A DNA stretch of 64,000 bases from Pseudomonadota bacterium (GCA_021325135.1 JAJPHT010000004.1:18527-82526), one strand, 5' to 3'. Shown: positions 507-52,819, counted from the stretch's first letter. The notes: generated by a model not told the origin, from the sequence alone. A program made the numbers and translations.

Positions 507-923
507 TTACAACGTCGCCCGCTCGGGCACGAACTTGTAGCCGTACTGGATGACGCCGCTCTCGCCCTCGGTGTTGATGCGCCGGAAGACGGCGTGGACG
601 GGCGTGCCGACGCCCACCTGGTCGGGCTTGGCGTCCACGATCTGCGCCGTGACGCGGGGCCCCTCCTCCAGGCGCACGAGGGCCAGGAGGTAGGGCGCTT
701 GGAGCTCGAAGCCGGCGGGGGGCGCGTGGACGGTGGTGACCGCCTCGACGGCGCCCTTGCCGCTGAGCTTGAACGGCGTGAGCTTGCCGTAGCTGGCGTG
801 GCGGCACTTGGGGCAGAGCGTCCGGCTGGGGAAGAGGACGCTGCCGCAGTTGCCGCACTTGACGCCCTTCATGGCGTAGCGCTCGTCGATCTCGCGCCAG
901 AAGCGTGGGGTCTGCATGCTCAC
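507..923 (-). CDS. DUF35 Zn-ribbon/OB-fold protein (thiolase partner)
   Basis: CGNC...CPKC zinc ribbon, OB-fold, C-terminal YGYKF; GTGA overlap with the thiolase stop. Confidence 0.92.
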   Translation of the reverse strand: MSMQTPRFWREIDERYAMKGVKCGNCGSVLFPSRTLCPKCRHASYGKLTPFKLSGKGAVEAVTTVHAPPAGFELQAPYLLALVRLEEGPRVTAQIVDAKPDQVGVGTPVHAVFRRINTEGESGVIQYGYKFVPERATL

Positions 924-2101
924 TCCCTCCCGAAGATGGACACGACGGCGGTGGCGCCGCTGCCGCCCACGTTGTGCGCGAGGCCGATGCGCGCGTCGCG
1001 CACCTGGCGCTCGCCCGCGGCGCCGCGAAGCTGGGCCACGATCTCGGCGACCTGCGCGAGGCCCGTGGCGCCCGGCGGGTGGCCGCGCGCCTTGAGGCCG
1101 CCGCTGGTGTTGACGGGCATCTCGCCCGAGAGCGAGGTGAGGCCGTTCTGCGCGGCCTTGCCGCCCGCGCCCTTCTCGTAGAGGCCCAGGTCCTCCAGCG
1201 CCATGATCTCCGCGATGGTGAACGCGTCGTGGACCTCCGCGACGTCCACGTCCGCGGGCGCGACGCCCGCCTTGCGGTAGGCGAGGTCGGCCGCGGCGCG
1301 CGTCGCCGCGAAGCTCGTGATGTCAGCCCGGTCCGCCAGGGCGAAGCGGTCCGAGGCCTGCGCGCTGGCGAGGATGCGCACGGGCTTCGCGCTGGAGGAG
1401 GCCGCGATCTCGTCGCTGCAAAGCACGACCGCGGCCGCGCCGTCGACGTTCGCCGCGCAGTCGAGCATGCGCAGCGGGTCCGCCACCATGGGGCTGCGGA
1501 GCACCTGGTCCATGGTGATGGTGAACGGGTAGGCCGCCTTCTTGTTGCGCGCGCCCGCCTCGTGGTTCTTCACGGCGACGGCCGCGAGCATCTCCCGCGT
1601 GGTGCCGTGGCGGCGCATGTGCTCCTGCGCCATGAGGGCGTGGACGCCGGGGAAGGTCGCGCCGTAGAAGGCCTCCCACTCCTGGTCCAGCGCCGCCGCG
1701 AGGGTGTTGGTCTGCTCCTGGTCCATGACGTCGGTCATCTTCTCGACGCCGCCCACCACGACCACGTCCGCCTCGCCGCTGCGGATGGCGAGGTAGCCCT
1801 GCCGGAGCGCCACCGCGCCGGAGGCGTCGGCCGCCTCGATGCGCGTGGCCGGGATGCGGTTGTCCGCGAGGCCCGCCTCGTCCACCACCAGCGCGCCCAC
1901 GTGCTCCTGCCCGATGAAGCGGCCCGCGCTCATGGAGCCCACGTAGAGGCAGTCGATGTCGTCGCCCGCGATGCCCGCGTCCTTCACGGCCGCGAGGCCC
2001 GCCTGGCCGATGAGCGTGCGGAAGGAGTCCTCCCAGAGCTCGCCGAACTTCGTGACGCCCGCCCCGAGGACGTGGACGCCGCGGCCCTTGTGCGTGCTCA
2101 C
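920..2101 (-). CDS. Archaeal/SCP2-type thiolase-family protein lacking the catalytic cysteines
   Basis: Thiolase motifs (GVEKM, SGGLKARGHP, HNVGG) but EAADASG and HDAF instead of EAACASG and HDCF. Confidence 0.9.
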   Translation of the reverse strand: MSTHKGRGVHVLGAGVTKFGELWEDSFRTLIGQAGLAAVKDAGIAGDDIDCLYVGSMSAGRFIGQEHVGALVVDEAGLADNRIPATRIEAADASGAVALRQGYLAIRSGEADVVVVGGVEKMTDVMDQEQTNTLAAALDQEWEAFYGATFPGVHALMAQEHMRRHGTTREMLAAVAVKNHEAGARNKKAAYPFTITMDQVLRSPMVADPLRMLDCAANVDGAAAVVLCSDEIAASSSAKPVRILASAQASDRFALADRADITSFAATRAAADLAYRKAGVAPADVDVAEVHDAFTIAEIMALEDLGLYEKGAGGKAAQNGLTSLSGEMPVNTSGGLKARGHPPGATGLAQVAEIVAQLRGAAGERQVRDARIGLAHNVGGSGATAVVSIFGRE

Positions 2102-2409
2102 TTGTCGTCACCGATATCAAAATCCACGCCCGCGAGCGGCGGGAGCTTCCTGGGCGCGGCGTTGTTCGGCTCGGGGATGGCGTCCGCGTGGACGGGCGGC
2201 GCGGCGACGCGCTCGGGCTGCGGCATCTGGAGCGCGCTCACGTGGCGCGGGTCCATGCCCATCCGGGCGAGGTGCTCGCGGCGCGCGTCCACCATGGCGC
2301 GGCCTTCCGCGAAGAAGGCGCCCTTGGAGAGGACGGCGTCGTGGGGCTCGGGAGTCTTGGGGCCCTTCTTGGGGGCCGGGAACGGGACGTTGGGAGTGAA
2401 CTCGGTCAG
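2098..2409 (-). CDS. Small Pro-rich hypothetical protein between HMG-CoA synthase and thiolase
   Basis: Open frame fills the gap; its TGA overlaps the thiolase GTG; start is either CTG at 2409 (overlapping the HMGS stop) or ATG at 2295. Confidence 0.5.
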
Positions 2410-3470
2410 GCGGAGGCCCCCTTCTGGATCTTTCCACGGTACTTGGCGTAGGTGGCGTAGTCGACGTACTCCTTGTCGGCCACGAGGTCCTGCACGGTGG
2501 GCGTGCGGGCGCGGTCGAGGCGCGAGATGGCGTCGGTGACGGTGATGTCGAAGGCGTCGGCGCCGGCGCCGCTGCCGTAGGCGCACAGGAAGATGCGGTC
2601 GCCCGGCGCGGCCTCGTCGAGGATGGCGCACAGGCCCAGCACGCTGGAGCCCGAGTAGGTGTTGCCGATGATGGGCGTCAGCAGGCCGGTCTTGTACTGC
2701 TCGCTGGTGAAGCCCATCTTCTCGCAGATGCGCACGGGGAACTTGCCGTTGGGCTGGTGGACCACCGCGTAGCGGTAGTCCTTCGCGCTGGTGCCAGCCT
2801 TCCGAAAGAGCCCCTCGCTGGCCTCGCGGACGTGGCGGAAGTAGGCGGGCTCGCCGGTGAAGCGGCCGCCGTGCGTGGGGTAGCGCTGCCCCTCGCGGCG
2901 CCAGAAGTCGGGCGTGTCGGTGGTGTACGAGGTCGTGTGGTCGATGCGCGCGACGACGTCCTTGGTGCCGATGACGAAGGCGGCCGCGCCCGCGCTGGCG
3001 GAGTACTCCAGCGCGTCGCCGGGCGCCCCCTGGGAGGTGTCCGCGCCGATGGCCAGCGCGTTCTGGATGTAGCCCGCCTTCACGAGCCCCATGGCGGCCT
3101 GCATCGCGGCGGTGCCCGCCTTGCAGGCGAACTCGAAGTCCGCGGCCGTCATGCGCGGGTCGCAGTCGATGGCCTCGCTCACGATGGTGGCCGTGGGCTT
3201 CACCGCGTAGACGTGGCTCTCGGAGCCCACGTAGATGGCGCCGATGGTGGCGGGGTCGACGCGCCCGCGCGCGAGGGCCTGCCGCGCGGCGTCCACCGAG
3301 AGGGTGGTGGTGTCCTGGTCGGGCGAGGGGACGGACTTCTCGAAGACGCCCAGCCCCTTCTTGATGCTCTCGGGATCCTCGCCCCACACCCGCGCGATCT
3401 CCTCGCTGCGGATGCGGTAGCGGGGGATCGACGCTCCGTAGGAGACGATCCCCACCACGGGGTCCGACAT
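2406..3470 (-). CDS. Archaeal hydroxymethylglutaryl-CoA synthase
   Basis: [33 protein letters not shown] (catalytic Cys), [15 protein letters not shown]; clustered with thiolase and DUF35. Confidence 0.95.
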
Positions 3471-3493
3471 GCGCGGCGCTACGCCCGTCCCGG

Positions 3494-3500
3494 TATTATA
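3494..3500 (-). promoter_or_regulatory. TATA-box-like element for the HMG-CoA synthase operon
   Basis: TATAATA on the minus strand about 24-30 bp upstream of the ATG, in a very GC-rich background. Confidence 0.6.
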
Positions 3501-3548
3501 GATGACGGGACCGATGTCGCGTTGCATCGGCAAGCGTCGACATCCAGC

Positions 3549-42788: not shown

Positions 42789-44615
42789 TTAGGTCTCCGC
42801 CGCGTGCGCGTCCTCGCGCGCCTTCGCGTCGGTCCAGGCGGAGAGGCGCGAGCGGAACGCGTACCAGGGCGCCGCGCCGAACGCGCCGCCGTAGAAGGCG
42901 ATCCACGCGGCCAGGAGCGCGCGCGCCGCGGCGAGCTTGCCCGTCTGCGCGAACTCCAGCCACTCGTCCCAGGCGAGGCCGCACGCGACGGCGAGGAGCG
43001 CCCCGCTCGCCAGCGTCTCGAAGACGGGCCACGAGCCCGCGCGGGCGCCGCGGCGCTTCTCGGTGCGCGTGAACGCCATGGGGATGCGCAGGACGCCCTT
43101 GGTGGCGCCCCACGCGTTGCTCAGCTTCACCGACATCCAGAGGCCCAGGACGCCCAGCGTGGCGCGGGCCGTGCGGTCCACCGAGCGGCGCAGCGCGACG
43201 TGGAGGCGCACGACGCCGTCGAAGAGCAGGAAGAACGGCACGAGCGCGAGGAGCAGCACCTCGTCGGCGTGCTGCGTCATGAGGTGCATGCCCAGGAGGT
43301 CCGCGACGCCCAGGATGAGGAGCATCGCGGCCATGAGGAGCATGACCGCGCCGTCGAACCAGTGCAGGCTCCCCACGAGGAAGTCCGCCTTCTGGCGGAA
43401 CGTCATCTTGGAGCGCGTCATGCGCTTCGCGTGCCCGCGGAGGATCTGCCCGCCACCGTAGGCCCAGCGGTGGTGCTGCTTGCGGAACGACTCGTAGCTC
43501 GCGGGGATGAGGCCGCGGCCGTAGGTGCGGTTGACGTAGAGGGAATGATAGCTGATGCCGATGACGCGGATGGAGAGCTCCGAGTCCTCGCAGAGGTACG
43601 CCTCGCCCCAGGCGCCGGCCTCCTCCAGCGCGGCGCGGCGCAGGATGCCCATGGTGCCGCAGAAGATGATGGCGCCCTCCTCGTTGCGGCTGGGCATGAC
43701 GGCGCGGTAGAAGAACGCGTCCGCGACGTGATATCTCCGGGTGATGAACGACTCGTCCGCGTTGCGGTAGTCCTGGGGCGTCTGGAGGAAGCCCAGCTTG
43801 GGGTCGACGAAGTAGCCCACCGTCTCGCGCAGGTACGCCGGGTCCACCTGGTAGTCCGCGTCCACGACGGCGATGAGCTCCACCTCGGGGGGCGTCGCCT
43901 TGAGCGCGTCGTTGAGCGCGCCGGCCTTGAAGCCGCGGCGGTCCGTGCGGTGGAGGTGCTGGACGCCGTGCTGCGCGCAGAAGCCCGCAAGGCGCGCGAC
44001 GGCGGCCTCGTCCGTGGAGTCGTCCAGGAGCATGATCGTCAGCCGCTCGCGCGGGTAGTCCACCGCGAGGATGCTGCGCAGCGTGTCCTCCACGAGCTCG
44101 GGGGGCTCGTTGAACGCCGCGACGTGGAACGCGACGCGGGGCACGTAGTAGGAGGAGAAAGGCTGGTCGTCGCTGCGCCGCGACCAGCGCTTGCGCGACG
44201 CGATGTCCAGCGCGTAGAAGGCGTGCACCGCGGCGAGGGCGAGGCTCGCCGTCTCCGCGACGAAGAGGAGGACCGAGAAGGGGAGCCCCTGGGCCGGCAC
44301 GCGGGGGAGCGCCACCGTCGCCTCGTGGAGGACGTAGCCCGCGACGACGGAGACGACGGCCACGTAGGAGGCGACGCCGTAGGAGCGCCACGAGCAGCGC
44401 GCGAGGAGGAGGCCCGCGCACGCGCCCAGCGTGATGCATGCGAACTCCGCGAAGCTCAGGGACGCCAGCGCGCGCGAGGCCAGCAGGGCGACGGCGTGGC
44501 GGTTGAGCGCCGTCGCGGGCCAGCTGGCCATGATGTAGCCCAGCACGAACACGCAGAGGCCCATGAGGGCGCCTGCGATGGAGCCGAACAGGATTTGGAA
44601 GGCGCGGCGGAGCAT
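42789..44615 (-). CDS. Processive GT2 glycosyltransferase (cellulose synthase/NdvB-like)
   Basis: [30 protein letters not shown] with N- and C-terminal TM helices. Confidence 0.92.
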
Positions 44616-45277
44616 CAGAACCAGACCTCGAACTCGCATGCTGGCGCGCCGGACGTGCGGCAGTGGACCTCGTGCGCGATGGCGGTGCGCCCCAGCGCGC
44701 GCGTGAACGCGGTCTCGATGAAGCCGCACTCGAACGCGCACCCTTCGACGCCTTGCGTCGAGGGGCCCTCGCGCCCGCAGCCGCGGCAGGAGTAGAGGTT
44801 GACCTTGAGGAAGCCGGGGAGCGCGCGCACGATGCGCGGATCGCCCATCTCGGTCTCCACCATGCGGTCGAGGACGTGGTCGAGCGTCTCGGCCCCCGCC
44901 CGCGCGCCCGCGGCGCGCCCGCGCTCGAACTCCAGGTCGCGCGGCCCGCGGTACGCGTCGCGGGGCGCCGCGTCCTCCATGCGGACGCGCGTGTGGACGC
45001 TGCGCGCCTTGGGCGGGTCGGGGGCGGGCGCCTCCAGGGCCGAGCCGAAGAGGGCGACGAGCCCCACGGCGGTCATGACCAGCACTCCGCCAAGCACCAG
45101 CAGGAGGCCGGGGCTCACGCCGCCGGGCAGGAGCTGGCGCTGGAGCAGCCACGCGAGCGCGCGCAGCGAGAGCCTGACGACGCCCGCCAGCGCGACGCGC
45201 CCCGAGGCGGTCGCGAGCAAGGGGAGGCCCAGGGCGAGGACGATGAGCAGGAGCGCGAGGCGGAGTTGCCGTCCCAT
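44615..45277 (-). CDS. Membrane protein with V4R domain
   Basis: N-terminal TMs, then CRGC...CAFECGFIE...EVHC......CEF; TGATG coupling to the GT2 gene. Confidence 0.8.
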   Translation of the reverse strand: MGRQLRLALLLIVLALGLPLLATASGRVALAGVVRLSLRALAWLLQRQLLPGGVSPGLLLVLGGVLVMTAVGLVALFGSALEAPAPDPPKARSVHTRVRMEDAAPRDAYRGPRDLEFERGRAAGARAGAETLDHVLDRMVETEMGDPRIVRALPGFLKVNLYSCRGCGREGPSTQGVEGCAFECGFIETAFTRALGRTAIAHEVHCRTSGAPACEFEVWF

Positions 45278-45382
45278 CCGGCGCCGCGGCCTCCCTGTCA
45301 TTCGACCTACGTTATGGATCGGACGTCGAAGGAACGGCGGGAGCCCGAAAGCGATTTGAGGGATCAGCCGTCATCGGCAGGC

Positions 45383-45847
45383 ATGCGACCCACGCCCCTC
45401 CTTGCTCTTCTGGTGGCGGCCATGGCGCTCGCCGGCTGCGCCTCGTCGCCGGCCGCTCCCGCGCCGGGCCAGGAGGCCAGCGGCGGCGTGCCCACGACGA
45501 GCCCCGCGAAGCCCACGACCGGCGCTCCGCCGGAGGGATCGCCCGAGACCCCCGTCTTCCTCCTCAACCGTTCGTTCGACTCCGCCTCGGCGCCTTTCGC
45601 GCAGGACTTCCAGGTGCCCAAGGCGGGCTGGCTCTGCATCGACGCCAACATCACGCGCGCGGCGGGCGACGCGGCGGTCACCATCGTCGACCCCTCGGGG
45701 AACCCCACCACCATCGCGTCCACGCGCGACGGCACGCTGAACAACGAGACCATCCTGGCCAACGACTTCGCCAGCACCTGGCACGTCCGCCTCGACCTGT
45801 CGGGCTTCAGCGGCTCCATCGAGGTCAACGTCACGCAGATGGGATAG
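45383..45847 (+). CDS. Lipoprotein with small beta-sandwich domain
   Basis: Lipobox LAGC; IVDPSG...TWHV; its 3' end overlaps the lanC 3' end. Confidence 0.8.
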   Translation: MRPTPLLALLVAAMALAGCASSPAAPAPGQEASGGVPTTSPAKPTTGAPPEGSPETPVFLLNRSFDSASAPFAQDFQVPKAGWLCIDANITRAAGDAAVTIVDPSGNPTTIASTRDGTLNNETILANDFASTWHVRLDLSGFSGSIEVNVTQMG

Positions 45848-46922
45848 GCGCCAGCGCGGAGGGCACGCGGCCCGGCTGCGCCAACTCCAGGAGCCAGTGG
45901 CCGATCCCCGCGACGCCCTGCATGAGGCCCGGGTGCGCGTCCACGAGCGCGCCCGTGGGCCAGCCGCGCCACGGCTCGCCCGCCTGATATCGTTCCATCC
46001 CCCAGCGCGCGACGGCGCGGGAGCGCGCGAGGGCGCCCGGCTCGCCCAGGGCGTCGTCCATGGCGTGGAGGCAGGCGGCCACGCCCGCGACGCCGCAGCA
46101 GAGGTGGAACAGCTCGCCGGGCCGCTCCAGCAGCCAGTCGAGCCGCGCCTGGGCCTGCGCGCGCAGCGCGCGGGAGGGCTCGCCGGCCAGCGCCCGCGCG
46201 AGGCCCATGCCCGGCGCGCCGTGGCACCACGTCTCGCGCTCGCGGGGGAGTGCCTCCTCGCGAAGGAACGCCTCGCGCGCCGCCTCGCGCGTCTCGGGGA
46301 AGAGGGAGAGCGCCCACGCGGCGCCCGAGAGCCCGTGGCTGAACCCCGCGGCCTCGACCTCCGGAGCGCGGCGCGCCACCTCGCGCGCCAGCGAGAAGGC
46401 GACGTCGGGCTCGGAGCGCGCGAGGAGGCCGGCCGCGCCCGCGCTCCCCTGCATGAGGTCCCAGCCGTGGGCGCGCCGGCGCGTCGCCAGCACGGAGCGG
46501 CGCAGCGCGCGGCCGCGGGAGGGCTCGCCCAGCGCGAGGGCGACCTCGTCGGCGGCCCACGCGACGCCCAGGGCGCCCAGGTAGGGGCCCAGGCGCCACG
46601 CGCCGCCCGTCTGCGCGGCCACGAGGGTCTTCGCGCGGTCCTCGTGCCACGCGTGCTTCAGCGCGTGCGCGAGGGCGCCCTTCGCCGCGCGCCGGTGGCG
46701 CCGCTCGCCGGTTGCGCGGGCGAGGCGCGCAAGGAACATGGCGACGCCCGCCGTCCCCGAGTGGACGCTGGACTCCAGCGTGAAGGCGAAGGGGCCGCCG
46801 TGGGGACCGGGCTCGCGGTGCGCCGCGATCCAGGTGCAGCGCTCTGCGTGCCAGATCGCGCGCTCCGCGAGCCAATCGCCAATGGCGCTGGCTTCCGCGA
46901 GGAGCGTCTCCTCCTCGCCCAT
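45831..46922 (-). CDS. lanC: Stand-alone LanC-like lanthionine cyclase
   Basis: Seven GxxG barrel repeats including GFSHGLSG (His), WCHGAPG and LCCGVAG (Zn ligands). Confidence 0.9.
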   Translation of the reverse strand: MGEEETLLAEASAIGDWLAERAIWHAERCTWIAAHREPGPHGGPFAFTLESSVHSGTAGVAMFLARLARATGERRHRRAAKGALAHALKHAWHEDRAKTLVAAQTGGAWRLGPYLGALGVAWAADEVALALGEPSRGRALRRSVLATRRRAHGWDLMQGSAGAAGLLARSEPDVAFSLAREVARRAPEVEAAGFSHGLSGAAWALSLFPETREAAREAFLREEALPRERETWCHGAPGMGLARALAGEPSRALRAQAQARLDWLLERPGELFHLCCGVAGVAACLHAMDDALGEPGALARSRAVARWGMERYQAGEPWRGWPTGALVDAHPGLMQGVAGIGHWLLELAQPGRVPSALAPIPSA

Positions 46923-47671
46923 CAGGCGCCACCCCAGGGGATCTCGCTCCGGCCGGGCGCAAGGTGCGGCGCGTCGAGGCCGGCCTTGCGGAGCTCCTCC
47001 TCCATGGCGGCGAGGCGGTCGCGCCCGTCGCGCTGCGCCGCGAGAAGGCCCTGCGCCGCGAGGCGGCAGCGGTGGAGGCCGAAGCTCTCGCCGCCGCCCG
47101 GGTCGTCCGCCAGCGCGACGCCCTTGGCCACGGGGCGCGCGAAGGCCGGCGTCCCGGGGCGCAGCCAGGGGGCGAGCGCGCGGCAGAACGCGGCCAGCGC
47201 GGGGTCGCCCATGGACTCGCGCGGCGCGTAGAGCACGGCCGCGTCGCAGCGCACGAACTGGCCCGGGTCGTTGAGCACCTTGAAATGATAGCTCAAGCCC
47301 TGCTCGTCGAGAAGGCGCAGCGCGCGCACGGCTGGCAGCGCGCCCTCGCGGCAGAGGTGCCAGTAGGCGCGCGCGGTGCCGGGCGTCGAGGGCGCGTGGG
47401 GCTTCGCCCCCGGCGCGTGGTGCCAGCCCAGGTCCGGGTCCTGCCGCGGCGCGGGGCGCGCCTGCGCCAGCGCGCGGGCCATGGCGTGGGAGAGGAGGCG
47501 CTCGCGCGCGGGCGCGCCCTCCTTCGCGGGCGCGCCGCCGCGCACGTAGAAGCGGTCGTAGAGGAGGCGCGCCGCGCCCGCGACGTCCAGGGGAATGCGC
47601 TCGTCGAGCCAGCGGAACGTCGTCGCGTCCTCGAAGGCCGCGGCCTGGGCCAGCGCGGCGAGCGCGCTCAC
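46922..47671 (-). CDS. HopA1-like phospho-Ser/Thr lyase (class V LanY/TvaD-like)
   Basis: RAYWHL, FKVL, RCDAAVLY, ESFGLHRC; GTGA and TGATG coupling to both neighbours. Confidence 0.85.
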   Translation of the reverse strand: MSALAALAQAAAFEDATTFRWLDERIPLDVAGAARLLYDRFYVRGGAPAKEGAPARERLLSHAMARALAQARPAPRQDPDLGWHHAPGAKPHAPSTPGTARAYWHLCREGALPAVRALRLLDEQGLSYHFKVLNDPGQFVRCDAAVLYAPRESMGDPALAAFCRALAPWLRPGTPAFARPVAKGVALADDPGGGESFGLHRCRLAAQGLLAAQRDGRDRLAAMEEELRKAGLDAPHLAPGRSEIPWGGA

Positions 47672-48759
47672 GCGTCCCACCCCAGGAGGCGCGCCGCGGA
47701 GGCCTGCGGGTCGCGGTGGGCCTCCGACGCGAGGCGCGCGGCCAGGAGGGGCAGGCGCGGCCGCTGCGCCGCCGCGGGGAGCGCCTCGTAGGCGTGGACT
47801 GCCAGGAGGAGCGGCAGGAGGCGCAGCACCGCGGGGCGGAGGTCGTCCACCGGCACGCGGGCGCGGGTGGCGTAGGCGCGCTCCATCTCCGCCGCGGCGG
47901 CGCGCCAGGTCTCGGGGCCGAAGCGCGCGGTGGCGGCGAAGCGCGCGGGGTCGTCCGCGTCCTCCGCCGCGCCTTCCACGAGCCAGAAGCGGACGTGCTC
48001 CGCCAGGGCGTAGCCGAGGTCCCACGCGGGGTCGCCGCGGCGCGCCATCTCCCAGTCCACGAGGCGCACGTTGAGGTCGCCCCCCGGGCCCGCGCCCGCG
48101 GTGAGGAGGAAGTTGTCCCAGCGCGCGTCGCCGTGGACCAGCGCGTTGCCCGCGGGCAGCGCGTGGGTCCAGAGGGCTTCGCCCTTCAGGGCGTCGCGCA
48201 GGGCGGCCGCGTGGGGGTCGGCCTTCGCGCGGCGCTCCAGGGCGGCGGGGATGCCCAGCGCCGCGGGCCCTTCGCGCGGCAGGAAGCGCAGGCGGCCCTC
48301 CCGCGCGGCGCGCTCGCCGGCCACGCGCACGCGGGCGAGGACGTGGCCCACGGTGCGGGCGGGCTCCAGGGGGAAGACGCCCGGCTCGCGCGTCTGGGCG
48401 TAGCGCAGCAGCGTCGTCGCGGGGTGGACGAGCCCCGTGGCGAGGAGCGCGTGGCGGCGCTCGAAGCGGAGGAAGCGCGGCGTGACGCGGCGCAGCGGGG
48501 CCAGCGTCGGCTCGCGCGCGATGGCGCGCAGCACGGCGGCCTCGCGGGCGAGCCCGTCCGCCAGCTCCGGGCTCGCGGGGTCCATGGCTTGCTTGAGGAG
48601 GACCCCCTCGCGGCCGGGCACGAGGACCTTCACGTTGCGGTTGCGGCGCGTGTAGTCCCTCGCCTCGACGCGGTCGCCCTGCGCGTCCACCACGGCGCGC
48701 GCCGGCACGAGCTTCCGGCCGATGAGCCAGGGCACGGCGCCGGAGAGCGTCAGCTCCAC
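47668..48759 (-). CDS. APH-family peptide Ser/Thr kinase (class V LanK/TvaC-like)
   Basis: RRNRN, LLKQ, LVHGDARWDN, VDWE, GDPAWD; start may extend to 48798. Confidence 0.88.
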   Translation of the reverse strand: MELTLSGAVPWLIGRKLVPARAVVDAQGDRVEARDYTRRNRNVKVLVPGREGVLLKQAMDPASPELADGLAREAAVLRAIAREPTLAPLRRVTPRFLRFERRHALLATGLVHPATTLLRYAQTREPGVFPLEPARTVGHVLARVRVAGERAAREGRLRFLPREGPAALGIPAALERRAKADPHAAALRDALKGEALWTHALPAGNALVHGDARWDNFLLTAGAGPGGDLNVRLVDWEMARRGDPAWDLGYALAEHVRFWLVEGAAEDADDPARFAATARFGPETWRAAAAEMERAYATRARVPVDDLRPAVLRLLPLLLAVHAYEALPAAAQRPRLPLLAARLASEAHRDPQASAARLLGWDA

Positions 48760-48866
48760 GGGCGCGCGAGGGCGGGGGCGGGAGATGAACCCATCCACGA
48801 GGAAACCGCGGTGAAGCGGAAGCCTTGATGCTCCGCCCTGGTCATCTTGGCGTGGAGGCCTGAGAC

Positions 48867-48986
48867 GTGAAGCTCACCACCCAGGACATCGACGCCATCG
48901 AGAACCGCGCCCCCCGCCCGAGCCAGGCGACGCCCACCGGCTGCTACTTCGGCACCGGCTGCTTCCTCTACTCGCTGAGCAAGTAG
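48867..48986 (+). CDS. Putative lanthipeptide precursor A1 (39 aa)
   Basis: GGAGG RBS 8 nt before GTG; MKLTTQDIDAIENRAPRPSQATPTGCYFGTGCFLYSLSK; homologous to A2. Confidence 0.85.
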   Translation: MKLTTQDIDAIENRAPRPSQATPTGCYFGTGCFLYSLSK

Positions 48987-49023
48987 GCAAAAACGCCGGG
49001 GGCCGGCGCCCCCCATTTTTTTC
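48987..49023. terminator. Bidirectional terminator-like element between the two precursor genes
   Basis: AAAAA, then GGGGGC-CGGC-GCCCCC hairpin, then T7 tract. Confidence 0.7.
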
Positions 49024-49146
49024 TTAGTGCAGGCTGTAGGTGAAGCACGCGCTGCCGAAGTAGCAGCCCGTGAGGGGCGGGATCGCCCGGTTGACGGGCA
49101 TGGTCTCGATGCTCTCGATCTCGGAAGCCTTCAGCGTCTTGGGCAT
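49024..49146 (-). CDS. Putative lanthipeptide precursor A2 (40 aa)
   Basis: GGAG RBS; MPKTLKASEIESIETMPVNRAIPPLTGCYFGSACFTYSLH; homologous to A1. Confidence 0.85.
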   Translation of the reverse strand: MPKTLKASEIESIETMPVNRAIPPLTGCYFGSACFTYSLH

Positions 49147-49317
49147 GTCCTGCACTCCAAGCCGGCGGGGGCCGGCGGCGAGGGAACGGGAGGAGCGCCC
49201 ATGAAGGCGTCGCCTTCCCCGCCGGGAGGGACCGGACCCGTCCAGGCGGCCGTTTCTTCCCCGGAAAGTGAAACGGGAGCCCAAACCTTCTTTTCGAGGC
49301 CGCCCGGTGGGACGACC

Positions 49318-50478
49318 ATGCGCGACGCGTACGTCGTCGGCGTGGGCGCCACGCCCTTCGGCAAGCTCGACACCACCCTGCGCGAGTCCGCGGTGCTCGC
49401 CGCCCTGGAGGCCATCGACCAGGCGGGGATCGATCCGGGCCTGCTGGAGGGCGCGTTCGTGGCCAACGCCCTGGGCATGGCCGAGCGGCAGGGCCACCTG
49501 GGCCCCCTGGTCATGACGAGCCTGGGCATCCCCGAGAAGCCGGCCTCCACCATCGAGGCGGCGTGCGCGTCGGGCGCGTCGGCCTTCCGCGAGGCCTACG
49601 TCAACGTCGCGGGCGGCTTCGCCGACGCCTACCTCGCCGTGGGCGTGGAGAAGGTCAGCGGCATCGACAGCATCACCGCGACGGGCTACTTCGCCTACGC
49701 GTCCGACTACGTGTACGAGGGAAGCTGCGGCGCCTCCTTCCCGGGCCTCTACGCCACCATCGCGCGGGCGCACATGAAGCGCTTCGGCACGACGGAGGAG
49801 GACCTGGCCCGCGTCGCGGTGAAGAACCACGAGAACGCGCTCCTGAACCCCAAGGCGCACCTCAAGAAGAAGATCAGCGTGGAGGACGTGCTCAAGAGCA
49901 CCGTCGTCTCGACGCCGCTGAAGATGTTCGACGCGTGCCCGTTCAGCGACGGCGCGGCGGCAGCCATCGTCACAACCAAGGAGATCGCGCAGCGCCTGGG
50001 CGGCCCCATGGTCCGCGTCGCGGGCGTCGGCCGCGCGGGCAGCCTCGCGGCGCTCCCCGACCGCAGCGACCTCACGAGCCTCACGGGCACCAAGGTTGCC
50101 GCGGCGCAGGCGCTCAAGCAGGCCAAGCTGGGCGTCGCCGACGTGGACTTCTTCGAGCTGCACGACTGCTTCACCATCGCGGAGCTGGTCGCCATGGAGG
50201 ACCTGGGCCTCGCGGCGCCGGGCAAGGCGGCCGCCATGGTGCGCGACGGGCAGACCGCGCGCCACGGCGACGTCCCCATCAACGCCTCCGGCGGCCTCAA
50301 GGCCAAGGGGCACCCCGTCGCGGCCACGGGCCTCGGGCAGGTCTACGAGCTCTACAACCAGATCACGGGCAAGGTCGGGGGCGAGCGCCAGCTTCGCGGC
50401 GTGAAGACCGGCCTCTCCCACAACGTGGGCGCCACAGGCGGCAGCGTCGCGGTCACGATCCTCCAGGGGGAGAACTGA
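49318..50478 (+). CDS. Archaeal/SCP2-type thiolase with intact catalytic motifs
   Basis: EAACASG, HDCF, GHP, HNVG. Confidence 0.93.
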   Translation: MRDAYVVGVGATPFGKLDTTLRESAVLAALEAIDQAGIDPGLLEGAFVANALGMAERQGHLGPLVMTSLGIPEKPASTIEAACASGASAFREAYVNVAGGFADAYLAVGVEKVSGIDSITATGYFAYASDYVYEGSCGASFPGLYATIARAHMKRFGTTEEDLARVAVKNHENALLNPKAHLKKKISVEDVLKSTVVSTPLKMFDACPFSDGAAAAIVTTKEIAQRLGGPMVRVAGVGRAGSLAALPDRSDLTSLTGTKVAAAQALKQAKLGVADVDFFELHDCFTIAELVAMEDLGLAAPGKAAAMVRDGQTARHGDVPINASGGLKAKGHPVAATGLGQVYELYNQITGKVGGERQLRGVKTGLSHNVGATGGSVAVTILQGEN

Positions 50479-50868
50479 ATGGCGGAGGCGGCGACGCGCC
50501 ACGTCATGACGCAGAAGGAGCAGAAGGACGCCGCCAAGGAGGGCAGGCTCCTGGCGTGGCAGTGCGCCCGGTGCGGCCACAAGAGCATCACGCCCATGTA
50601 CGTCTGCCCCCTGGACAAGGGCCGCGACATCACCACCGCGCAGCTTCCCAGCACGGGCGTCGTCGAGGCGTACACCATCCAGAAGCTCATCGCGCCCGAG
50701 GAGTTCCTCAACGACATCCCCTTCGCGTTCGTCGTGGTGCGCCTGGACGACGGCACGCACGTCTCCGGCATGGTGCTGGACGTGAACTCGGAGCGCGACC
50801 TGCCCCCCGGCAGCAAGGTCAAGCACGCGCCGTCGTACAAATCGGTCTACCTCTTCGAGAAGGCGTAG
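50479..50868 (+). CDS. DUF35 Zn-ribbon/OB-fold protein
   Basis: CARC...CPLD ribbon plus OB-fold; directly after the thiolase. Confidence 0.88.
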   Translation: MAEAATRHVMTQKEQKDAAKEGRLLAWQCARCGHKSITPMYVCPLDKGRDITTAQLPSTGVVEAYTIQKLIAPEEFLNDIPFAFVVVRLDDGTHVSGMVLDVNSERDLPPGSKVKHAPSYKSVYLFEKA

Positions 50869-50870
50869 CG

Positions 50871-51716
50871 ATGGCCGCGCCCAACACGTTCAACCTGCCC
50901 GCCGAGACCCTCGCCTCGTGGGCGTCGCGCGTCGCGGGCTTCCGCGGCCAGAAGTCCGTGGACGAGGTGCTCCGCGAGATGGAGGGCGCCGCGCAGAAGG
51001 CCGGCCCCGACGGGAAGGTCGCCCTCTCGCGCCACCAGCTCTGGACGTGGGGCGAGTCGCTCCAGGGGCTCAGCGCGAAGCTGCCCCTTGCTGGCGCCGA
51101 CGCCGCGCGCGGCCTCGCCGCCGAGATCCGCGGCATCCTCTCCGGGCAGCCCGTCGCCGCGCCCGCGCCGACGCCGCAGGCACCCTCCCTCGCGACGGGC
51201 CTCTCGTGGGAGACGCCCAAGGCGCCCGCCGCCGCGGCGCCCCCGCCCGTCACCTACGTCAAGCCCGCGCCCGCGGCCAGCGACCTCGTGCGCCTCGTGG
51301 CGGACCGCGACCTGGGCTCCGCCGTGCAGGGCATGATCCGCGGCGCCAAGCAGGAGATCCTCGTCCTCTCGCCCTGGCGCGGCGGCATGGACACGCTGCT
51401 CAACGACCTCGTGGCCGTCCCGCCCGCGGTCGCCATCCGGCTCATCACGCGCGCGCCGCAGCCCGACGACCCCGCGTACCACCGCGCGCTGGCGGACCTG
51501 CGCCGCCGCGGCGTGGACGTCGCCGTCTCGCCCTACGTCCACACGCGCATGGTCATCGTCGACGCGCAGACGCTCCTCCTGGGCGCCGCCAGCATCCCGG
51601 GCCCCACGGTGGGCTACTCGCGCGAGGTGGCCATCCTCACCACGGACCCCCGATCGGTGGCGGATGCGCGGCTGCACTTCGCCAACGTGCAGCGCGACGT
51701 GCGCGGGCCCGTGTAG
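50871..51716 (+). CDS. Protein with C-terminal degenerate phospholipase D-like domain
   Basis: AKQEILVLSPW, VHTRMVIVD, LGAAS, SRE. Confidence 0.75.
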   Translation: MAAPNTFNLPAETLASWASRVAGFRGQKSVDEVLREMEGAAQKAGPDGKVALSRHQLWTWGESLQGLSAKLPLAGADAARGLAAEIRGILSGQPVAAPAPTPQAPSLATGLSWETPKAPAAAAPPPVTYVKPAPAASDLVRLVADRDLGSAVQGMIRGAKQEILVLSPWRGGMDTLLNDLVAVPPAVAIRLITRAPQPDDPAYHRALADLRRRGVDVAVSPYVHTRMVIVDAQTLLLGAASIPGPTVGYSREVAILTTDPRSVADARLHFANVQRDVRGPV

Positions 51717-51719
51717 CAG

Positions 51720-51842
51720 GTCGTCGGCGGCGCCGCAGCGCCGCTACCCGAGGGGGTTTCAGGGGGCGCAGCCCCCTGACGTGAACGCCCCGTCCCAGCA
51801 GACGACCGAGACGTCAGGGGGCTGCGCCCCTCGAACCCCCCG
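51720..51842. repeat. REPIN-like element (inverted REP pair)
   Basis: Homologous to 18345-18465, including the upstream GCGCCGCAGCGC segment. Confidence 0.85.
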
Positions 51843-51865
51843 CTTTTGGCGCGGCCGCCGAAACG

Positions 51866-52819
51866 CTAACCCGGCCCCGCCCCAAGGAGCAGCGCCGAGA
51901 GGACCGTTCCGCGGTCCAGATGCACGGTGGACTGGTCGGTGCGGGCCACCGTCGTGCGCTCGTCCACGTCCAGGACGTCCTCCGCCCGCGTGGGCATGCC
52001 GTTGTCCTTCATGGCGATGGCCAGCAGGGCGTGGTCCACGGGCAGGCGCACGTCGCGGGAGTCGGAGCCGCTGTCGCTGGAGCGCAGCGTCGAGTTGGCG
52101 AGGTCTCCCACGGACGCGCTGCCGTTGGCGCGGAGCAGGGGCAGGGCGGCCTTCGCGGTCGCCGGGGTGAGGGAGACCGACTGGACGACGCGCGGGTCCG
52201 GGTGCGCGGCGGCGAGGTCCCGCGTCGCGCTGCTCCCGGTCGCCACGTCCCGGTACGAGACGAGGGCGTGGGGATCGAGGGCGAAGCCGTTGGCCAGGAG
52301 CGCGAGGCCGCCCGCGGCCGTCTCGTCGGGGAGCGACGCGCGGCGCGAGAGCGCGTCGGAGGTCGTGTACGTCACGTCGCGCGTGAGCAGGTCCGAAAGC
52401 GCGCCCTGCGTCGGCGCGACGCCCAGCGTGAGCGCGCTCAGGACGTTCTCCACCGGCACGTCGACGCGCTGCGACGAGACGGTCGTGCGCGCCCGCGAGG
52501 AGTCGCTCTGCGCGAGGTCGCTCACGTTGAAGGGGACCCCGCTGGCGCGGGAGAGCGCGAGGGCGTTCTCCACCGTGGTCTGGTCCAGGGACACGTTCTG
52601 GGCCGAGGTGGCGTCCCGCGAGTAGGCGCGATGCGCGTCGGAGAGCGCGTCAAGGGCGCCTCCCGCAGGGATGCCGGTGGGCTCGTGAGCGCGGACCTCG
52701 GTGGCCAGCGGGTCCGCGGGGAGCGCCAGCGGGGAGGCGAGGGACGCGGGCGCCAGGAGCAGGAGAAGGAAGGCCAGCCCGCTCGCCCATGCGGGTGCGA
52801 CGCGCGCGGCGCTGGCCAT
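51866..52819 (-). CDS. Secreted hypothetical protein with internal duplication
   Basis: Signal peptide; QNVSLDQ...PVENVL repeated as QSVSLTP...PVDHAL. Confidence 0.7.
   Translation of the reverse strand: MASAARVAPAWASGLAFLLLLLAPASLASPLALPADPLATEVRAHEPTGIPAGGALDALSDAHRAYSRDATSAQNVSLDQTTVENALALSRASGVPFNVSDLAQSDSSRARTTVSSQRVDVPVENVLSALTLGVAPTQGALSDLLTRDVTYTTSDALSRRASLPDETAAGGLALLANGFALDPHALVSYRDVATGSSATRDLAAAHPDPRVVQSVSLTPATAKAALPLLRANGSASVGDLANSTLRSSDSGSDSRDVRLPVDHALLAIAMKDNGMPTRAEDVLDVDERTTVARTDQSTVHLDRGTVLSALLLGAGPG

Follow-up and report, generated by a model that had tools for sequence, protein, structure and literature searches.

Does the chromosome of a soil archaeon encode a lanthipeptide pathway of class V, the class whose defining trait is dehydration by a LanK/LanY enzyme pair (PMC9486802)? 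The question is raised by a 64-kb stretch of DNA (the window, 64,000 nucleotides in all), in which genes for a kinase (LanK), a HopA1-type lyase (LanY) and a LanC-type cyclase (LanC) lie beside genes for two short peptides, A1 and A2. All archaeal lanthipeptides characterised so far are LanM-type products of halophiles, and all characterised class V systems are actinobacterial (PMC12144867, PMC12328550). A 2025 review places class V solely in actinobacteria (PMC12328550), and a 2025 survey of 11,644 archaeal genomes discusses solely the LanM clusters of Haloarchaea, with class V unmentioned (PMC12144867). A full-text literature search combining class V or HopA1 with archaea found nothing relevant. 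We propose that the cluster is very probably a functional, minimal class V-type lanthipeptide locus (LanK/LanY/LanC, class Vb) on the chromosome of a high-GC soil archaeon. The gene identities, motifs, folds, conservation and archaeal context are matters of direct observation and are taken up in turn.

The three enzyme genes run head to tail on the minus strand in the order kinase, lyase, LanC (Table 1). The kinase ends in TGA (47670-47668) and the lyase begins with GTG (47671-69), the two codons overlapping as GTGA; at the next junction the lyase stop codon TGA (46924-22) and the LanC ATG (46922-20) have one A in common, giving TGATG. Both overlaps were read directly from the sequence and would couple the three genes translationally. 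The start of the kinase itself, a GTG at 48798, is uncertain by a few codons. Both precursor genes lie within 350 bp of the kinase-lyase pair. A1 is transcribed divergently from the kinase operon, an orientation seen again at two related loci (L036 and L038), and converges with A2 on a hairpin of 6 bp, all GC, with an A-run on one flank and a T-run on the other. A terminator scan, which gave 6 sites where shuffled sequence would give 1.0, calls this hairpin on either strand, and it also appears in the predicted RNA fold. Because A1 and A2 converge on a two-way terminator, A2 could not be co-transcribed with the kinase operon. A sigma-70 promoter scan gave no match, as expected for an archaeon, and no TATA box or transcription factor B recognition element was convincingly located by eye. 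Rfam and tRNA scans of the 64-kb window also gave no match.

The kinase matches the Pfam APH family (E 5.7e-8), and its best NCBIfam match is the class V kinase LxmK (8.5e-12). LanK carries the motifs HGDARWDN (H222, D224, N229) and DWE (D248-E250) and an ATP-site lysine, K69; the residues K69, H222, D224, N229 and D248 are invariant across eight archaeal kinase paralogues. For a profile of these eight paralogues, the best match in the Protein Data Bank (PDB) is LxmK in the LxmKY complex (9dk1_A, 8.9e-8).

LanY matches the HopA1 family (PF17914, E 3.1e-21), and the best PDB match of the lyase profile by sequence is LxmY (9dk1_B, 1.7e-23). For the AlphaFold2 model of LanY, with a predicted local distance difference test score (pLDDT) of 75.7, Foldseek likewise ranks LxmY first (6e-11, root-mean-square deviation 3.2 Å, 30-32% identity), followed by HopA1 and then by the lyase domains of CuvL and ThurKC. 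Four residues, R101, K131, R141 and Y148, are invariant among the archaeal paralogues. The spacing of K131, R141 and Y148 (K+10, R+7) is identical to that of K219, R229 and Y236 in CaoY, and R101, 30 residues before K131, corresponds to CaoY R187, 32 residues before K219. K131, R141 and Y148 thus match CaoY residues whose importance rests on mutagenesis or conservation; in CaoY, K219 and R187 proved essential and R229 important (PMC9486802).

LanC matches Pfam LANC_like (E 8.5e-28) over positions 4-349 of the 350 in the profile, and its best NCBIfam match is the C-terminal (cyclase) domain of LanM (3.2e-34). The AlphaFold2 model (pLDDT 87.9, predicted template-modelling score 0.90) is matched in Foldseek by LicM2, CuvL, LanCL1/2, MadC and NisC. 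A closer look at the zinc site shows that SHG (H196), WCHG (C233) and C275 are invariant in nine paralogues. The next position, 276, which alignment to LicM2 puts on the His of the CHG motif, is Cys (LCCG) in the window and its orthologue in a genome of the same genus (G002), while LicM2 and the other seven paralogues have His there. With Cys at 276 in place of the usual His, LanC has a Cys-Cys-Cys (CCG) ligand set. By fold and motifs, LanC is a LanC-fold cyclase with a predicted zinc site and acid/base His, encoded together with LanK and LanY.

The leader of A1 contains the stretch QDIDAIEN and its core is TGCYFGTGCFLYSLSK; the leader of A2 contains SEIESIET and its core is TGCYFGSACFTYSLH. 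Since the window has a GC content of 72%, long spurious open reading frames (ORFs) occur in all frames, and GC content at third codon positions (GC3) was therefore used to pick real genes. By this measure the precursors (A1, 1.0; A2, 0.95) resemble the real genes of the genome. A ribosome-binding site is present in both, GGAGG placed 9 nt 5' of the A1 GTG start and GGAG upstream of A2. The orthologous cluster in G002 (L011) has four precursors (L011:11649-12103), two of which have cores almost identical to those of A1 and A2. The core of the A1 orthologue differs solely at its C-terminus (ratio of non-synonymous to synonymous divergence, dN/dS, 0.22), and A2 has an orthologue and two further paralogues in the G002 cluster. 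In the other two G002 precursors the core is very short (TGCYVWTRI or TGCYLWTRL) and has just one Cys.

The long cores follow the pattern TGCYFG(T/S)xCF(L/T)YSL plus one or two C-terminal residues, which gives 15-16 residues in A1 and A2. Two Cys are invariant in all long cores, at fixed spacing to Ser/Thr, and both C-x-x-x-(S/T) and (S/T)-x-C, the latter twice in long cores, are kept in every core. As both spacings are conserved, the sequence is compatible with more than one ring topology, and up to two thioether rings are possible. The leader motif (D/E)(I/V)(D/E/Q)x(L/I/M)(E/D), mostly followed by N(T/S), is common to all precursors found. In an alignment of 17 peptides from 9 loci, all have this motif and a core with Cys and Ser/Thr, and the peptides of two further loci, L036 and L038, have the motif as well. 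Motif-bearing precursors occur at three other loci of the host genome (G000), at L011, at a G312 locus and on metagenome contigs L031, L032, L036 and L038. Beside the clusters at L012 and L026, no peptide of this kind was found. When the 17 aligned precursors were made into a profile, it had 15 matches in 5.8 billion proteins, most of them the queries themselves, and no NCBIfam model fits the precursors; the leader motif thus appears to be rare in public protein data.

A preliminary description of the window, made from its sequence, had proposed an APH kinase with intact HGDxxxxN and DWE motifs, a HopA1-like lyase and a LanC with zinc-site motifs, coupled through GTGA and TGATG overlaps and standing beside two homologous Ser/Thr/Cys peptides. 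Each of these elements was recovered in place. Profile (HMM) searches for APH, HopA1 and LANC_like matched all three enzymes, the invariant residues and the LxmK and LxmY matches agree with the kinase and lyase assignments, and the peptides are upheld by their ribosome-binding sites, GC3 and conservation. The zinc site departs from the usual set only in its fourth position, Cys instead of His.

We infer the chemical steps and the product as follows. LanK and LanY would recognise A1 and A2 by the conserved leader motif at their N-terminus, and LanK would use ATP to phosphorylate Ser and Thr in the core. LanY would then eliminate the phosphate to leave dehydroalanine or dehydrobutyrine, with a predicted catalytic set corresponding to R101, K131, R141 and Y148. 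The zinc-dependent LanC would add the thiols of the two core Cys to the dehydro residues, giving at most two lanthionine or methyllanthionine rings per peptide. Processing may fall to the M50-type peptidases of the paralogous clusters or to housekeeping enzymes.

The window is part of contig C50 of G000, a 3.77-Mb metagenome-assembled genome (MAG) of 51 contigs that is 94% complete. The genome has a TBP gene, three TFB genes and archaellin genes, and C50 carries its sole DUF5611 gene; among 14 control genomes, DUF5611 matched solely two archaea. Four MAGs of the same genus and one of the same family share the flanks of the cluster at 77-86% nucleotide identity, and synteny with G002:C14 stops at 45869, within the last LanC codons. 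A contig from an independent assembly of the source soil sample covers 43000-50246 with zero differences and bridges flank, cluster and flank. GC content (0.722) and GC3 match those of the genome. Pfam found no archaea-specific family on 20 ORFs of the window itself, an exact-protein look-up of the DUF35 neighbour gave no match, and the archaeal RNase P model reached 68.5 of 84 bits, below the cut-off. A search of the 94%-complete MAG for the ribosomal proteins S25e and S26e gave no match, which fits, without proving, a euryarchaeal-grade lineage such as Thermoplasmatota. The shared flanks, DUF5611 and the second assembly make mis-binning or chimerism unlikely, and the genomic evidence supports an archaeal contig.

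The archaeal chromosome suggested in the preliminary description is thus in keeping with the contig taxonomy, as seen in TBP/TFB, in DUF5611 on C50 and in the flanks shared with related MAGs. Its further claim, that decarboxylase, methyltransferase, reductase and YcaO genes are lacking, agrees with a Pfam scan of the called ORFs at 41.1-50.9 kb, except for a short lipoprotein-like ORF and the one that follows DUF35, which detected none of the four. The neighbours identified in that interval are mutase, GT2, V4R, thiolase and DUF35 only.

Table 1. Features of the cluster, its flanks and the paralogous clusters of the same genome. Positions are those of the window unless a locus is named; K-Y-C denotes adjacent LanK, LanY and LanC genes.
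Feature	Position	Strand	Basis or content
LanK, APH-fold Ser/Thr kinase, 376 residues	47668-48798	-	Pfam APH
LanY, HopA1-type phosphoSer/phosphoThr lyase, 249 residues, GTG start	46922-47671	-	Pfam HopA1
LanC, stand-alone lanthionine cyclase, 363 residues	45831-46922	-	Pfam LANC_like
Precursor A1, 39 residues, GTG start	48867-48986	+	Ribosome-binding site, GC3, orthologue
Precursor A2 (P0001), 40 residues	49024-49146	-	Translation, ribosome-binding site, GC3
Two-way terminator region	48990-49023	both	Hairpin 48998-49013 with A-run / T-run
Flank with mutase, GT2, V4R, small lipoprotein	up to 45869		Shared with five related MAGs
Flank with thiolase, DUF35	from 49282		Shared with five related MAGs
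Paralogous cluster G000:C39	L028:4605-13165		K-Y-C, two luciferase-like oxidoreductases, at least 4 precursors of 68-94 residues, M50 peptidase
Paralogous cluster G000:C42	L029:5418-8950		K-Y-C, two co-oriented precursors
Paralogous cluster G000:C7	L030:6314-9662		K-Y-C, one 83-residue precursor with repeated core

The cluster in the window is one of four K-Y-C triads in the same genome (C39, C42, C7 and C50), 30-42% identical to one another. The recurrence of K-Y-C with related precursors at three other loci of this genome, and of K-Y-C in four more genomes of the phylum, is far beyond chance. A HopA1 gene is present in 5 of 401 sampled genomes of the phylum, namely G000, G002 of the same genus and three genomes of another family. 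The K-Y-C order is kept wherever the contig is long enough; in G306 just the lyase and LanC genes were recovered, on a 2.5-kb contig. Orthologous or paralogous clusters lie on long contigs in G002, G246 and G312. Between G000 and G002, synonymous divergence (dS) is 0.46-0.53 for the cluster orthologues and 0.37-0.51 for flanking housekeeping genes, a likeness that fits vertical descent. Throughout, dN/dS is below 1 (enzymes, 0.42-0.59; precursors, 0.22-0.60).

The position of the clusters varies among relatives. A model of simple insertion was rejected, since the G002 orthologue lies in a different genomic context and the flanks are rearranged between relatives. A farmland-soil contig of 259 kb (L031:2959-8225) has a precursor, an M50 peptidase and K-Y-C between adenylosuccinate lyase and an aminotransferase. 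Both of these flanking genes have counterparts on G000:C12 (23058-32741), at 83% and 76% identity, which stand 6 kb apart with no such cluster; the L031 cluster also neighbours an archaellin gene. A cluster at a site that is empty in G000:C12 suggests that these clusters move within the lineage, like movable islands.

Beyond this lineage, a lyase profile search of 1.84 billion representatives returned 3815 relatives; the best 150 of these comprise 88 stand-alone lyases and 62 lyase-LanC fusions. The fusions (P0021, P0059, P0074 and others) are about 750-800 residues long, with a few above 1000 that have an extra C-terminal part, and one (L035:1484-3820) directly follows an APH kinase. In the lyase tree, all archaeal lyases fall in one clade of 44 tips (support 0.976), and four further members of that clade with a readable neighbourhood (P0010, P0011, P0013 and P0019) are on contigs of 70-75% GC that carry the same leader motif. 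LanY itself sits on a long branch, with the G002 orthologue as its sole close relative (64%) and the next at 40-44%. A lyase search of genome contigs found one relative, on a Gemmatimonadota contig with kinase and lyase and without LanC.

Several side observations concern the surroundings of the cluster. The small lipoprotein-like gene (about 45380-45847, plus strand) and LanC are convergent, their stop codons overlapping by 17 nt (45831-45847). V4R proteins adjoin two of the four clusters, a membrane V4R (44615-45301) here and a PAS-V4R protein (L029:9880-11058) at C42; the adjacency is possibly coincidental, because the window copy is part of the conserved flank. A second thiolase beside an HMG-CoA-synthase-like gene (920-3548) lies 47 kb from the cluster-flanking thiolase and DUF35 (49318-50868). 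Mine metagenomes of another study contain short contigs identical to parts of 43000-52000, from the flank as well as the cluster, at 2-5x depth. None of these bridges a flank-cluster junction, and flank and cluster fragments have similar low depth; the identical fragments would place the same strain in at least two habitats.

Some of the evidence weighs against a functional class V-type locus and must be set beside other explanations. LanK scores 44.8 bits, far below the LxmK equivalog cut-off of 315 bits; it is a distant member of the class V kinases and not an orthologue of LxmK. Co-folding of LanK and LanY with A2 scored 0.58 against 0.00 for the best control, with runs agreeing in at least 35% of contacts and a partner pLDDT of at least 48. 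Of 80 solved complexes 58 pass the mark applied, as do 2 of 110 mismatched pairs; just 7 of those 80 complexes, and both passing mismatches, pass it with a score of 0.60 or less. The modelling weakly supports binding of A2 by the pair. The cluster is also the smallest of the four and has no protease (leader peptidase), exporter or immunity gene, its LanC is shorter than the paralogues and lacks two insertions (about 46 residues in total), and enzyme dN/dS is about twice that of the housekeeping neighbours (0.20-0.26). These traits would suit a decaying or silent remnant with intact genes, the three richer paralogous clusters, with their M50 peptidase and luciferase-like reductases, working in its stead. 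We regard this as unlikely, since all three frames, the overlaps and the catalytic residues are kept in two species at dS of about 0.5, the precursor cores are nearly unchanged between G000 and G002, and the shortened LanC is modelled confidently as a complete LanC barrel.

The enzymes might instead work on a product that is not a strict lanthipeptide, either a dehydrated linear peptide or one to which LanC adds a small-molecule thiol. Eukaryotic LanCL proteins add glutathione, and the LanC model resembles the LanCL1/2 structures too. Class Va peptides, moreover, are able to cyclise without LanC (PMC11186320). The two invariant Cys of each long core, at fixed spacing to Ser/Thr, and the predicted translational coupling of LanC to LanY nevertheless point to ring formation, and we consider such a product quite improbable. 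That the contig or cluster is bacterial DNA, mis-binned or chimeric in an archaeal MAG, seems to us scarcely credible. The estimated contamination of the MAG is 5.6%, the wider HopA1 family is recorded mostly from Actinomycetota, and high GC would also suit actinobacteria. However, both flanks are common to five independently binned relatives, a gene family confined to archaea among the controls lies on the same contig, and GC and GC3 fit the genome. The clusters on long contigs in three other genomes, the 259-kb soil contig, where a related cluster has an archaellin gene on one side and, on the other, genes with 76-83% identity to G000:C12, and the second assembly that bridges the cluster and both flanks argue in the same direction.

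A functional class V-type locus therefore remains our preferred reading. The locus and its relatives show that a non-halophilic soil archaeon encodes, maintains and has diversified the kinase/HopA1-lyase/LanC route. Taking all clusters together, we tentatively suggest that a little-studied lineage of high-GC soil archaea may have evolved a diversified class V family with the leader (K/R)DIERLEN(T/S), several clusters per genome and varying chromosomal sites. In the cluster of the window, a minimal three-Cys LanC would install unusually small rings of the (S/T)-x-C kind on an aromatic core of 15 residues. If true, this diversified soil-archaeal family would provide the first archaeal lanthipeptides outside class II. 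The cluster brings neither new chemistry nor an answer to a long-standing question. The leader motif, however, is a simple mining handle for peptides mostly missed by gene callers, and the very small size of the cluster, three enzymes with 15-16-residue cores, makes it an easy target for heterologous expression. It would also allow the role of a three-Cys zinc site to be tested in a stand-alone cyclase.

The features that mark a class V system, namely the kinase motif, the lyase residues and an adjacent kinase/lyase pair with a precursor, are all found in the sequence, and the Pfam scan of the called ORFs at 41.1-50.9 kb, with the exceptions given above, found no LanD and no LanX, which agrees with class Vb. 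Class III and IV systems (LanKC, LanL) have a fused, OspF-type lyase, whereas the window has three separate frames and a HopA1-type lyase. Thioamitide clusters are recognised by YcaO with TfuA, and neither was found in the called neighbours that were scanned, which reach to about 4.7 kb downstream of LanC and to 1.7 kb past A2. The cyclase domains of ProcM-type LanM enzymes have three Cys zinc ligands and form the CCG group. The window LanC likewise has Cys at the His-ligand position and a LanM domain as its NCBIfam match, but is a stand-alone protein paired with a kinase and a lyase and has no LanM dehydratase domain. It lacks the Cys-Cys-His CHG set of class I-type (NisC-like) LanC proteins, and no LanB dehydratase is present.

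Among archaeal genomes, lanthionine peptides are represented by the archalans and their relatives, which are made by a single LanM and are reported solely from Haloarchaea (PMC12144867), while the window has three enzymes, a different dehydration chemistry and a non-halophilic soil lineage as host. The preliminary description had taken class V to be characterised in bacteria and archaeal lanthipeptides to be LanM-type, in agreement with the papers compared (PMC12328550, PMC12144867, PMC8153245). It had also taken the locus to be a minimal, probably undescribed archaeal pathway. This holds for the archaeal host; the architecture was described in 2021 (PMC8153245) and again in 2022 with SmoKYC (PMC11186320). 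Eyles et al. (2021) surveyed 1,340 HopA1 proteins across bacterial phyla, 96% of them with a neighbouring phosphotransferase and 20% with LanC nearby or fused, and predicted that the set of HopA1, kinase and LanC, fusions included, is a lanthionine synthetase (PMC8153245). Those clusters share the three domains of the window, but the survey covers bacterial phyla only, no archaeal entries were found in its text-format supplements, and the archaeal proteins are separate and unfused. The enzyme architecture is thus already known; new, on the sequences compared, are the archaeal host, the lineage-specific precursor family with its leader, the shortened CCG stand-alone LanC and the minimal gene set.

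Of the class Va systems, LxmK/LxmY (lexapeptide; PDB 9DK1-3) and CaoK/CaoY (cacaoidin; PMC9486802) have adjacent kinase and lyase genes as in the window. In sequence and structure, the window kinase and lyase match LxmK and LxmY best, and the R/K/R/Y lyase set is shared. The class Va (Lxm, Cao) pathways have no LanC; besides LanX, which is a second APH-fold protein, they employ LanD, methyltransferases and F420-dependent reductases. In the window, by contrast, LanX, LanD, F420 reductases and methyltransferases are not next to the cluster, and lyase identity is about 30%. Class Vb is further marked by a stapled, overlapping ring pattern. The Streptomyces pathway SmoKYC, reported in 2022 (Pei et al., J Am Chem Soc 144:17549) and termed class Vb, has, in the outline given by PMC11186320 and PMC12328550, a separate APH-type kinase, HopA1-type lyase and dedicated LanC (SmoK, SmoY and SmoC), as does the window. 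In that outline it also resembles the window in having no LanD or LanX, hence no aminovinyl-cysteine, and in its short Ser/Thr/Cys core. The two differ in host, actinobacterial in one and archaeal in the other, and in the shortened LanC with its CCG zinc site in the window; compared by description, the window precursors appear to form an unrelated family with a leader motif of their own.

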